Of a stretch of DNA of 37,708 nucleotides, positions 28,342 through 29,373 are shown in pieces. Below the pieces are notes generated by a model that was not told where the DNA came from, did not search any database, and saw only the letters and a program-made list of their open reading frames with translations. Origin of the DNA: Flavobacteriales bacterium. GTDB taxonomy: Bacteria; Bacteroidota; Bacteroidia; Flavobacteriales; BACL11. A program made the translations under genes and the position numbers. The stretch is from NCBI GenBank assembly GCA_002683775.1, contig NYTT01000067.1:1-37708 (forward strand). Reading direction: 5' to 3'. Position 1 is the first letter of the stretch. Every line of letters starts with the position of its first letter.

Positions 28342-29373
28342 CTATTTATTTTTATTTAACATCATTATTTTATTAAAGTCAAACCCTTTTTCCCAATTTA
28401 ATGTTGTGAATATTGATGGAGATGTATTAAGTAATTCAAGAAAGGAAAAAAGAGGATTATTTTTAAATGAATTTTTTACTGAAAGCCATCTTATGCCAAT
28501 GCCAATTGTTGCTGTTTTATTTTCTACATAATGCCATAGATAAGAAGGGATAAAAATTATGTCGCCCTCATTTAGTGTAATCTCACATTTGGGAAGATAC
28601 TGAAAAGCAGAGTTGTTATTTTTATCAATATTATAAGGGTTAATATCTGATGATTTGGCAGGTGCTCGATTTACTTTAGGATTAAATATATAATGAGCAT
28701 TTTGATGCCAAATTAACCATTTTTTCTGCCCTCTTATTTGAACAAACAAATTTTCATTGCCAGCATTATGAATAGGTGTTTTTGTTTTCTTATTTCCAAT
28801 AAAAAGAACATGATGTTTTTTAAATTTTGTATCTCTAACATCGTTTAACCACTTTTGATTAAGACTAGTTTGTAATAGAGGGTAATTATCCAGTAATGGA
28901 TTAAATCTAGCATAATCTAATGAGTTGTTGTTGATTCCATCAATTATGTTTTTCAGATTCGAATTTCTAGGCTCTGATTCTATATTTTCTCCTAAATCAT
29001 CATGATTAGATAATAAAACTGGATGGTTACCAAAATTATCTTTAAAAAAAGAAAAATCCCAATGTTTAAAAGCATCCCAATTTTTGGCGCCATCACGTAT
29101 GACAAATGGGATCCCTTTTTTTATATAATGATCTTTTATTTTAGATGGACAGTAGTGTTTGTCAAGTTCATCTATTTTTAATATAGTTTTCGGATGATGT
29201 TTAACACTTGTATATATTTTTTTCTGAATTTTGGATTCCCATTTTTTAATAATAGAAAGAAGAGGTGGAAACCAGCCTAGAGTATGCTCGAGAACATATC
29301 TTACGCCAAAAGATAACTTAGTAAATGTTGGAATATCCTGAACTAAATTTTTATAATATTTATGAAAAGTCAT
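28342..29373 (-). CDS. FIH-like JmjC / cupin_8 2-oxoglutarate oxygenase homologue with an HxA...H metal site
   Basis: 343 aa. TKTPIHNAGNENLFVQIRGQKKW and EGDIIFIPSYLWHYVE align gaplessly to the FIH core ([20 protein letters not shown]; GDVLYIPMYWWHHIE). The upstream GIPFVIRDGAKNWDAFKHW is typical of cupin_8. Confidence 0.8.
   Translation of the reverse strand: MTFHKYYKNLVQDIPTFTKLSFGVRYVLEHTLGWFPPLLSIIKKWESKIQKKIYTSVKHHPKTILKIDELDKHYCPSKIKDHYIKKGIPFVIRDGAKNWDAFKHWDFSFFKDNFGNHPVLLSNHDDLGENIESEPRNSNLKNIIDGINNNSLDYARFNPLLDNYPLLQTSLNQKWLNDVRDTKFKKHHVLFIGNKKTKTPIHNAGNENLFVQIRGQKKWLIWHQNAHYIFNPKVNRAPAKSSDINPYNIDKNNNSAFQYLPKCEITLNEGDIIFIPSYLWHYVENKTATIGIGIRWLSVKNSFKNNPLFSFLELLNTSPSIFTTLNWEKGFDFNKIMMLNKNK

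Follow-up and report, generated by a model that had tools for sequence, protein, structure and literature searches.

The 37,708-nucleotide stretch of DNA analysed here (the window), from a Flavobacteriales bacterium, carries at 28342..29373 a gene for a 343-amino-acid protein with an ATG start, in which the original prediction saw a relative of FIH whose iron-binding aspartate had been replaced by alanine. Is such a protein still an active Fe(II)/2-oxoglutarate (2OG) enzyme, and if so, does it halogenate, hydroxylate or do something else? Fe(II)/2OG halogenases are prized because they act on unactivated C-H bonds, and few scaffolds of this kind have been described. A large JmjC-fold family that naturally lacks the carboxylate ligand would matter whether its members halogenate or hydroxylate. 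Our analysis predicts, with a probability of roughly three in four, that the protein is an active two-His Fe(II)/2OG oxygenase of lipid metabolism with a JmjC/Cupin_8 (FIH/JMJD5-like) fold. Its narrower assignment as a halogenase is more tentative; we treat halogenation as the leading reading, with a two-His hydroxylase resembling AspH nearly as likely.

Fold and metal site of the protein

The gene, the codons given below and the neighbouring genes and hairpin all lie on the reverse strand, and the reading frame and the codons of H202, A204 and H281 were verified at the positions first assigned to them. NCBI labels the identical protein 'cupin-like domain-containing protein' (Flavobacteriales bacterium MAG). 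In agreement with the predicted family, a Pfam search matched Cupin_8 (E = 3.7e-26, residues 77-289), with JmjC_2 and JmjC also matching. No SyrB2/PhyH-like, WelO5 or BesD-type halogenase model in Pfam or NCBIfam was matched, only Cupin_8/JmjC models; NCBIfam gave no match for the protein at all, and its Pfam search matched neither PF05118 (Asp_Arg_Hydrox) nor Cupin_4, the wide profile giving only a marginal PDB match to a Cupin 4 protein (E = 9e-4). One automatic JGI annotation of a cluster member as a RoxA/YcfD ribosomal arginine hydroxylase was rejected, since that enzyme belongs to another cupin family and the motif here is HxA, not HxD.

The AlphaFold2 model (pLDDT 86.8, pTM 0.88) was matched best by Foldseek to JMJD5 (TM 0.86, target-normalised; rmsd 2.6 Å), followed by JMJD7, FIH and TYW5, and the JmjC fold is confirmed at the level of this predicted structure. 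The Cupin_8/JmjC double-stranded beta-helix core comprises residues 77-289 (28507..29145), as judged from Pfam and from the Foldseek matches to JMJD5, FIH and JMJD7. The protein shares with JMJD5 (KDM8), FIH, JMJD7 and TYW5 the fold, the Pfam family and the His and Tyr/Thr/Asn/Lys positions, but identity is only about 18-20% and those enzymes retain the carboxylate ligand where Ala is found here. They also act on proteins or tRNA, whereas the cupin family described here sits in bacterial lipid clusters. A further difference is a conserved N-terminal extension of three helices (residues 1-60, 29194..29373), delineated from DSSP of the model, profile matches and alignments, with the motif R-[FY]-x-x-E-H-x-L-G. 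The extension is common to the wider family: family-profile matches span about positions 12-340, while JMJD5 is matched only from about position 57.

By alignment the first iron ligand is H202 (CAT, 28768..28770), equivalent to FIH H199 and invariant (182/182), and the second is H281 (28531..28533), equivalent to FIH H279 and likewise invariant. A204 (GCT, 28762..28764) stands at the carboxylate-ligand position, that of FIH D201 and JMJD5 D323, by phmmer and by profile register. When compared with PDB chains, phmmer placed 'tpihnagnenlfvqirgqkk' on FIH 'tpahy[d]eqqnffaqikgykr' and 'gdiifipsylwhyve' on FIH 'gdvlyipmywwhhie', both without gaps. HMMER aligned H202-N-A204 to FIH H199-Y-D201 and JMJD5 H321-Q-D323, and the family profile keeps the same register on JMJD5 ('SPLHQDPQQNF'). 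The gapless alignment to the FIH core given in the original prediction, with its HxA...H pattern and its T199, N208 and K217, is thus reproduced by phmmer and profile alike. The engineered FIH variants D201A (2ilm) and D201G (3d8c) outscored wild-type FIH chains in every search. By alignment their first sphere is identical, two His without a carboxylate, but they were engineered from a protein hydroxylase, whereas the site here is natural, ancient and family-wide.

A base-call error or a strain-specific change at codon 204, which had been raised as a concern, is refuted by the occurrence of the exact protein on 13 independent contigs (ENA, JGI and NCBI assemblies) and by the presence of Ala in 33/34 relatives and in 10/11 cluster variants.

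The 2OG-binding residues are retained as well. T199 (28777..28779), a 2OG contact by alignment with FIH T196, is Thr or Ser in 180/182 family members; N208 (28750..28752), aligned to FIH N205 and its contact to the 2OG C1-carboxylate, is Asn in 148/182; and K217 (28723..28725), aligned to FIH K214 and its contact to the C5-carboxylate, is Lys in 181/182. G215 is invariant in the wider family (n = 182). Y154 (28912..28914), which falls on the Tyr of JMJD5 'GYLAQHQLFD', does not vary within the close group; it is presumably the equivalent of FIH Tyr145 and a further contact to the C5-carboxylate.

With one of the three canonical ligands missing, the protein could be a pseudoenzyme or a binding protein without catalytic function that no longer binds iron, and FIH D201A is reportedly inactive. 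We consider this highly improbable. Both His residues and all 2OG contacts are conserved in a family that reaches down to 20-30% identity, and FIH variants and AspH bind iron with two His alone. The protein is also under purifying selection (dN/dS ∼ 0.2), the value being 0.25 in the comparison with an orthologue of 88% identity and 0.20 with one of 98.5%.

Column 204 across the family

Among 34 relatives at 42-98% identity, 33 have Ala at column 204, one, a rare variant, has Thr, and none (0/34) has Asp or Glu; the close group as a whole (n = 35) has Ala in 34/35 and Thr in one. The full-length variants of the 90% cluster carry A204 in 10/11 cases and T204 in 1/11, the latter in a protein that is 98% identical. 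Further out the picture changes. Conservation of the Ala column, which the original prediction had singled out as informative, holds at 42-98% identity and does not extend to relatives at 20-35% identity, where Asp or Glu is found in 18%. The wider family (n = 182) has A in 123 sequences, G in 18, E in 23, D in 9, S in 4, T in 2, N in 2 and V in 1, that is, 141 A/G against 32 D/E forms. It comprises 186 representative clusters at E < 1e-30, and of the sequences examined about three in four have HxA/G; a large protein search seeded with a 127-sequence alignment recovered the same close group and nothing further.

Although the family shares identity only down to 20-30%, column 204 holds only A/G/S/T/V, D/E or Asn, and this limitation to small residues, acids or Asn fits a metal-site position with two states. 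In a neighbour-joining tree the D/E forms make up several small clades scattered among the A/G forms, and the remaining active-site columns are alike in both. Other 2OG families that contain hydroxylase/halogenase pairs present the same picture. No second-sphere column co-varied sharply with A/G versus D/E, the best being 206 (T/S versus P) and 210 (F versus Y).

Could the carboxylate simply have moved? E207 (28753..28755), the first residue of the model strand 207-214, is the obvious candidate, either as a second-sphere residue or as an alternative ligand. Every close-group sequence has an acid at position 207 (22 Glu, 13 Asp), which is what one would expect if E207 (Asp in 13/35) coordinated iron in an otherwise conventional hydroxylase with a displaced ligand; in the wider family the position is variable, and it aligns to FIH Q204 and JMJD5 Q326. 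Its expected orientation argues otherwise. E207 adjoins N208, which faces inwards, and by beta-strand alternation at the start of strand 207-214 its side-chain should point away from the metal; it also misses by one residue the place of the Glu in classical cupins, which N208 occupies here. Across the wider family only 16/107 A/G members have any Asp or Glu at 203, 205, 206 or 207 and 91/107 have none nearby, so a shifted carboxylate is excluded as a general solution, and for the protein studied here we regard it as very unlikely.

The same residue has a second possible role. As in AspH, a second-sphere residue, here D/E207 or N206, could keep a water molecule in the vacant position, in which case the protein would hydroxylate an aliphatic carbon of the same lipid that we propose below as a halogenation substrate. 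The strict retention of D/E207 in the close group suits this arrangement, and so does the occurrence of Ser, Thr and Asn at column 204 in some members, including T204 in the 98%-identical variant. Most wider-family HxA/G members have no acid at 207, which therefore is not a general solution, and a column limited to small residues, acids or Asn would be less expected if the enzyme were indifferent to the carboxylate. To our knowledge the characterised natural HxA/G 2OG enzymes, AspH-type enzymes aside, are halogenases, which also counts against hydroxylation. Lipid hydroxylation is common in Bacteroidota, and one distant member (L019) is encoded alongside other lipid hydroxylase and desaturase genes. 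Taken together, we judge a natural two-His hydroxylase to be a possible outcome, though one on the unlikely side.

Gene neighbourhoods and the probable substrate

The upstream neighbour on the same strand encodes a 578-amino-acid ABC exporter (29461..31197) and the cupin gene lies just downstream of it, as had been noted. The best family match of the exporter is the MsbA lipid A exporter (E = 4.7e-131, under the equivalog cut-off), and the adjacency of the two genes is kept in relatives at 88-100% identity. According to the gene tables an HxlR-type regulator (31203..31508) lies directly upstream of the exporter; we mention it as context only. A sequence scan placed a terminator-like hairpin between the exporter and cupin genes (29435..29451), the sole such site in the 3.5-kb region scanned, where about one is expected by chance. 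Two other features ascribed to the locus did not hold up. The promoter box attributed to the cupin gene is no better than chance: 21 sigma-70-like matches were found versus 19.6 expected, and the Bacteroidota TAnnTTTG box at 29409-29416 is one of a type that occurs in the window 67 times versus 68.9 by chance. The 'accessory-looking' block has no compositional island signature, its GC content of 0.28-0.31 being the same as in the remainder of the window.

More can be learned from the relatives. We scanned genome contigs (5 loci) and metagenome contigs (15 loci), numbers that show context but are too few for statistics. In eight related loci (L006, L007, L009, L010, L012, L015, L036 and L040) the cupin gene adjoins genes for a KASIII enzyme, an AMP-ligase and a short-chain dehydrogenase/reductase (SDR), in the order OleA-like, OleC-like, OleD-like. 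In L036 (3021-9860) and in L015, both with a Saprospiraceae orthologue, the cassette comprises genes for the cupin, KASIII, ligase, MMPL and SDR proteins. The SDR has the OleD 2-alkyl-3-oxoalkanoate reductase as its best family match (E = 2e-53 and 3e-33), the KASIII protein matches the structures of X. campestris OleA and the ligase matches OleC models; all of these neighbours score under the curated equivalog cut-offs. An MMPL exporter is adjacent in L015, L023, L024, L025 and L036, and in one lineage (L006 and L040) a phosphopantetheinyl transferase (PPTase) and a 76-amino-acid carrier protein with a DSIDL motif are encoded directly upstream. Distant HxA/G members have genes for fatty-acid desaturases, P450s, PhyH and AspH-like proteins nearby, or lie within a terpenoid cluster. 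The informative context is the Ole-like lipid cassette seen in orthologues, not the ABC exporter alone, and a lipid substrate is probable because the relatives have Ole-like, desaturase and lipid-exporter neighbours.

In gene types these cassettes resemble the OleABCD olefin pathway and the oleACD beta-lactone pathways (lipstatin, nocardiolactone), with no oleB adjoining; they differ in that some also include an MMPL exporter, or else a carrier protein with a PPTase. With the alpha/beta-hydrolase of L005 as tblastn query no oleB match was obtained in the cassettes, and no alpha/beta-hydrolase was present in the gene tables. We know of no Ole or beta-lactone cluster that has been described with a JmjC-type oxygenase. 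Known oleACD clusters that lack oleB produce beta-lactones (PMC7064751). The link to an oleB-less Ole-like cassette suggests that Bacteroidota make modified beta-lactone or hydroxy-acid lipids.

The composition of the cassettes raises another reading, in which the substrate itself completes the metal site. A 2-alkyl-3-hydroxy fatty acid might bind the iron in place of Asp, through its carboxylate or beta-hydroxy-carboxylate, and undergo oxidative decarboxylation or desaturation, and the protein might then stand in for OleB and give the olefin. OleA-, OleC- and OleD-like genes together with the cupin gene, and no alpha/beta-hydrolase, are what such a route would contain, and the beta-lactone clusters are a precedent for the lack of oleB. 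An anionic substrate could be bound by the conserved Arg/Lys residues at 295, 156 and 236. Among these, R295 (28489..28491) is a candidate binder of the anionic group; it is presumably in the pocket and equivalent to FIH N294. It aligns to JMJD5 W414, the residue changed to Cys in 6f4t. Position 295 is Arg or Lys in about 88% of the family, in A/G and D/E forms alike, and the Arg residues are kept just as well in the D/E forms, whose iron site has no vacancy. OleB chemistry, moreover, is non-oxidative and requires no 2OG, no Ole genes are found near the cupin gene in the window genome, and we know of no JmjC-family precedent. A substrate-ligated oxidase therefore appears doubtful.

Comparison with other two-histidine enzymes

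AspH, a 2OG enzyme whose two-His site is natural, hydroxylates without halogenating; its vacant site is filled by water that is stabilized by a second-sphere Asp (PMC13168262, PMC6817910). FIH D201G is catalytically viable, in line with the original prediction (PMC6817910). Both are precedents for hydroxylation at a site like the one described here; AspH shares the natural two-His site and differs in belonging to the Asp_Arg_Hydrox family. A lipid-acting relative, LpxO, is known in the AspH family. If the present protein hydroxylates, it would be the second natural example of two-His hydroxylation after AspH, and the interconverting D/E forms within one family would amount to a natural experiment on hydroxylation versus halogenation.

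The Fe(II)/2OG halogenases SyrB2, CytC3, CmaB, HctB, CurA-Hal, WelO5, AmbO5 and BesD share the HxA/G...H site with 2OG binding kept, which for our protein is deduced from sequence. Further likenesses are the existence of HxD/E relatives in the same family, the carrier protein and PPTase of one lineage here, and an aliphatic lipid or acyl substrate class, which is a presumption in our case. They differ in belonging to other double-stranded beta-helix subfamilies (PhyH-like and others). The original prediction knew of no JmjC/FIH-type halogenase; this is probably outdated, since OocP of oocydin biosynthesis has been reported as an Fe(II)/2OG halogenase (PMC11260071) and was predicted to have a cupin-like domain (PMC4552970). 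If our protein is a halogenase it would not be the first of its kind, a cupin-type halogenase having already been reported. The PDB entry 8a82 ('Cupin_8 domain-containing protein', 389 aa, heterodimer set) is matched by the single sequence with E = 1.4e-7. This entry, which we take to be OocPQ, is matched by family profiles with E = 5e-18 and 4e-29 in alignments that begin near the N-terminus; 17 JMJD5 and 12 FIH sequences rank above it, and a query of the PDB with the family motif consensus gave no match to 8a82. OocP needs its partner OocQ and acts on PKS-bound intermediates of a trans-AT PKS, whereas here the pathway is Ole-like and the gene tables contain no conserved uncharacterized partner gene beside the orthologues.

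The halogenase reading draws support from the Ala on the carboxylate position, from the conserved ligand and 2OG residues, from the fixation of Ala in the close group and from the carrier protein and PPTase of L006 and L040. Carrier-bound substrates are typical of known Fe(II)/2OG halogenases. Several observations weaken it. Loss of the carboxylate is necessary yet insufficient: AspH hydroxylates without it, and FIH D201G stays a hydroxylase-type catalyst. The strict D/E207 of the close group could hold water or bind the metal, and no second-sphere column clearly co-varies with A/G versus D/E. A few members tolerate Thr, Ser, Asn or Val at column 204, which is unusual at the carboxylate position of known halogenases. 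Ole-like genes are absent from the window, and the Ole-like neighbours elsewhere fall under the equivalog cut-offs. We also know of no halogenated lipids from these Bacteroidota.

If the halogenase reading is correct, H202 and H281 would hold the iron, and 2OG would chelate it while being anchored by K217, T199, Y154 and N208. A204-G205 would leave open the coordination position usually taken by Asp or Glu, which would most likely be occupied by an anion from solution, chloride or bromide. Oxidative decarboxylation of 2OG would then yield a halo-ferryl species that abstracts hydrogen from an unactivated aliphatic carbon, to which the halogen is returned; the chemistry would be the radical halogenation of SyrB2, WelO5 and BesD. 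A lipid is the most likely substrate: an OleA/OleD/OleC-like pathway could supply a fatty-acyl chain, a 2-alkyl-3-hydroxy acid or a beta-lactone, and in one lineage the substrate may ride on the carrier protein. The product would leave the cell via the MsbA-like ABC pump or an MMPL pump.

Such an activity would give halogenation a firm place in the JmjC branch, where OocP, tied to a PKS, is so far a single case, and would provide a free-standing scaffold for C-H halogenation. It would also imply halogenated lipids as yet unknown in the abundant marine Flavobacteriales and Saprospiraceae. More speculatively, the family may represent a widespread, uncharacterized clade of free-standing JmjC-type radical halogenases. 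In Bacteroidota of marine and freshwater habitats such enzymes would chlorinate or brominate aliphatic carbons of lipids from the Ole pathway, be they 2-alkyl-3-hydroxy acids, beta-lactones or olefins; in cyanobacteria and further phyla the targets would be different lipids or terpenoids. Were this so, a new class of bacterial organohalogen lipids would come with a new biocatalyst scaffold for C-H halogenation. A plasmid collection contained only distant Cupin_8 genes (23-26% identity), among them an HxA gene on a Planktothrix plasmid, within a terpenoid cluster, and an HxD gene on a Vibrio plasmid, within an NRPS cluster.

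Fold and register of the metal site

The coding sequence at 28342..29373 (- strand) starts with ATG and encodes a 343-residue protein. In Pfam, residues 77-289 match Cupin_8 (E 3.7e-26), with weaker JmjC_2 and JmjC matches, in agreement with the JmjC/cupin assignment of the original prediction; NCBIfam holds no model for the protein. A phmmer search of all PDB chains aligned T199/H202/A204/N208/K217/H281 without gaps to T196/H199/D201/N205/K214/H279 of FIH, reproducing the alignment given in the original prediction. By this alignment the iron ligands are H202 (CAT, 28768-28770, - strand) and H281 (28531-28533, - strand), and A204 (GCT, 28762-28764, - strand) takes the position of D201. 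The reading frame and all three codons had been placed exactly, and the observation built on them, an Ala in place of the FIH-type Asp ligand, is confirmed. A profile of relatives searched against JMJD5 left the register unchanged (JMJD5 motif H321-Q-D323). In every PDB search the engineered FIH D201A (2ilm) and D201G (3d8c) chains scored above all wild-type FIH chains, which confirms the register independently, if in a small way.

An AlphaFold2 model calculated from a 35-sequence alignment (pLDDT 86.8, pTM 0.88) was compared with known structures using Foldseek. JMJD5 was the top match (TM 0.86, normalised to target; rmsd 2.6 Å), followed by JMJD7, FIH and TYW5. The protein resembles these four Cupin_8/JmjC hydroxylases in both fold and sequence but, unlike them, lacks the HxD/E motif. 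Bacterial JmjC proteins were described as HxD/E hydroxylases in the Iyer-Aravind survey.

Conservation of column 204

Independent ENA, JGI and NCBI assemblies together contain 13 contigs that code for an identical protein; NCBI lists it under a Flavobacteriales bacterium MAG as a cupin-like domain-containing protein. A204 is present in 10 of the 11 full-length variants of its 90% cluster, the exception being the cluster representative P0001 (T204). P0001 is 98% identical to the 28342-29373 product, occurs on 3 contigs and carries its natural A204T among 7 substitutions; the change could be explained by a rare polymorphism or by the consensus step of assembly. A large protein search yielded a close group of 34 relatives (42-98% identity), in which H202, N208, K217 and H281 are invariant, G205 nearly so, and column 204 is Ala everywhere except in P0001, with Asp or Glu in none. 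The Nei-Gojobori dN/dS shows purifying selection on the gene: it is 0.25 for an orthologue of 88% identity and 0.20 for one of 98.5%.

Position 207 is strictly acidic in the close group (22 Glu, 13 Asp), and E207 might be thought to complete a shifted triad as an iron ligand. However, it aligns to Q204 of FIH and begins a strand beside N208, which faces inward. Its side chain should therefore face away, and we regard this arrangement as improbable. Among wider-family members with Ala or Gly at column 204, just 16 of 107 have an acid at 203, 205, 206 or 207, so a shifted carboxylate is not the general case.

To obtain the wider family, 1.84 billion cluster representatives were searched with a profile; 7602 proteins matched at E<1e-3, of which 186 reached E<1e-30. 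The best matches span nearly the whole length, including the N-terminal three-helix extension, which JMJD5 does not match. H202, G215 and H281 never vary across an alignment of 182 sequences, Lys217 is found in 181, Thr or Ser at 199 in 180 and Asn208 in 148; that the product is a pseudoenzyme seems unlikely. Column 204 holds A (123), G (18), E (23), D (9), S (4), T (2), N (2) or V (1) and thus admits only small residues, acids or Asn. The Ala on which the original prediction rested is kept in the close group (33 of 34 relatives) and is replaced by D/E in 32 of the 182 wider-family sequences. The D/E forms do not group together in a neighbour-joining tree but occur as several small clades interspersed with A/G forms. 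The active-site columns (Y154, T199, N208, K217, Arg/Lys at 295, 156 and 236) are alike in both, and no second-sphere column sharply separating them was found in the family alignment. The gene is thus genuine and conserved, and belongs to a large family of two-His JmjC oxygenases that is as yet uncharacterised.

Genomic neighbourhoods

An ABC exporter gene (578 aa, - strand; best family match MsbA, E 4.7e-131, below the equivalog cut-off) precedes the cupin gene on the same strand, as originally described, and an HxlR-type regulator (- strand) lies upstream of the exporter. At 31203-33183 the regulator and exporter occupy one strand and a YceI-family protein and pirin, named through Pfam matches at the identical locus L001, diverge on the other. 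Such HxlR/exporter and divergent YceI-pirin layouts are often redox- or quinone-responsive; this may hint at the conditions under which the exporter, and possibly the cupin gene too, is expressed. A terminator-like hairpin (29435-29451, - strand) separates the exporter gene from the cupin gene. Promoter motifs ahead of the cupin gene matched no better than chance and GC is uniform over the whole window, with no sign of a compositional island; neither the gene's supposed own promoter box nor the supposed accessory block is borne out. The ABC-cupin pairing is retained only among relatives at least 88% identical. A DEAD-box helicase gene (27098-28336, +) converges with the cupin gene (stop at 28342, -), with only 5 bases between their ends (28336-28342), where no terminator-like site was found.

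More distant orthologues give the more telling context. In eight loci from Saprospiraceae MAGs and unassigned metagenome contigs (L006, L007, L009, L010, L012, L015, L036 and L040), a KASIII-type ketosynthase and an AMP-forming ligase adjoin the cupin gene, joined by a 3-beta-HSD-type SDR wherever the contig reaches far enough. These cassettes lie at L015 8103-14992, L036 3021-9860, L009 1045-5664, L012 6446-10972 and L007 3007-9011, those of L015 and L036 with an inserted MMPL exporter gene. In the variants L006 (7123-12561) and L040 (9105-14540), the cupin gene comes directly after genes for a phosphopantetheinyl transferase and for a 76-aa protein bearing the carrier-protein motif DSIDL, and the remaining genes run in the order ligase, SDR, KASIII; a UbiA prenyltransferase and second ligase diverge from the L006 cassette. 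Top NCBIfam matches of the SDR are OleD 2-alkyl-3-oxoalkanoate reductases (E 2e-53 in L015, 3e-33 in L006). The ketosynthase matches Xanthomonas OleA crystal structures (E 1.6e-26), slightly behind FabH. For the ligase, a generic fatty-acid ligase model scores ahead of the OleC beta-lactone synthetase models, which match at 1e-18 to 1e-26. Since all fall under curated cut-offs, we call them Ole-like rather than Ole orthologues. No alpha/beta-hydrolase was found beside the cassettes, either in gene tables or by tblastn with the hydrolase of L005, another cupin locus, and oleACD clusters without oleB yield beta-lactones, not olefins (PMC7064751). By analogy, the Bacteroidota cassettes may make beta-lactone or 2-alkyl-3-hydroxy-acid lipids. 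To our knowledge, neither has been reported from Bacteroidota.

In the clade of relative P0005 an MMPL gene abuts the cupin gene convergently, and at L025 an MMPL-like gene lies upstream; the gene tables of L005 and L014 show no such lipid-cassette or MMPL link. The neighbourhoods link the family to lipid exporters and to Ole-like lipid cassettes. Among distant members, an HxA/G protein (L017) neighbours P450s, a fatty-acid desaturase and a Rieske protein, and an HxG Cupin_8 protein (L019, 419-5415) neighbours two fatty-acid desaturases (one a cytochrome b5 fusion), a PhyH dioxygenase and an AspH-like hydroxylase, five oxidative lipid-type enzymes within 5 kb. On Planktothrix agardhii plasmid p2 (NZ_LR882940.1, L021), a distant Cupin_8 protein with motif H-C-A (8463-9566) belongs to a terpenoid cluster of squalene type, which also encodes a squalene/phytoene synthase, a cyclase-like protein, four P450s, a Rieske protein and FAD oxidoreductases. 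A Vibrio cupin of an NRPS cluster has H-T-D. The recurring theme over the cupin loci is lipid tailoring and export.

Candidate chemistry

The analysis shows the JmjC fold, the two His ligands, the full 2OG-binding set, the conserved absence of the carboxylate, purifying selection and the lipid-pathway neighbourhood. Fe(II) would be held by H202 and H281 and chelated by 2OG, itself anchored by K217, T199, Y154 and N208, and an exogenous ligand would occupy the position opened by A204-G205. Following oxidative decarboxylation of 2OG, the ferryl would take hydrogen from an aliphatic lipid carbon, the nature of the exogenous ligand deciding the chemistry. A halide would give SyrB2-type halogenation, and a substrate carboxylate on the iron could instead lead to decarboxylation or desaturation. 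We tentatively rank a halogenase first (probability roughly 0.4) because column 204 is two-state within otherwise identical active sites, most A/G members have no compensating acid, and the surrounding biosynthetic pathway is aliphatic and in part linked to a carrier protein. AspH-type hydroxylation, with water held by a second-sphere residue, is possible and ranks close behind: the two-His site of AspH need not halogenate (PMC13168262, PMC6817910), FIH D201G stays viable, D/E207 is fixed in the close group, and a few members have Thr, Ser or Asn at column 204.

The likeness to Fe/2OG halogenases is limited to the first-sphere motif, and in Pfam and NCBIfam the protein is not homologous to their families. 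The family profiles match PDB 8a82, which is probably OocPQ (a 389-aa "Cupin_8 domain-containing protein" in a heterodimer benchmark set; E 5e-18 and 4e-29). OocP, from the oocydin pathway, has been described as an Fe(II)/2OG halogenase working as a heterodimer with OocQ (PMC11260071), and as having a cupin-like domain (PMC4552970). A cupin-type halogenase has thus apparently been reported already, and the original statement that no JmjC/FIH-type halogenase was known is probably outdated; a full-text literature search turned up no account of a JmjC-type halogenase family. The original interpretation is partly supported, in that the protein belongs to the two-His JmjC oxygenases and its Ala is conserved in the close group, with halogenation as a candidate activity. 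OocP has its OocQ partner and a PKS context, whereas the gene tables list no OocQ-like partner for the cupin protein, which is free-standing and belongs to a lipid/Ole-like context.
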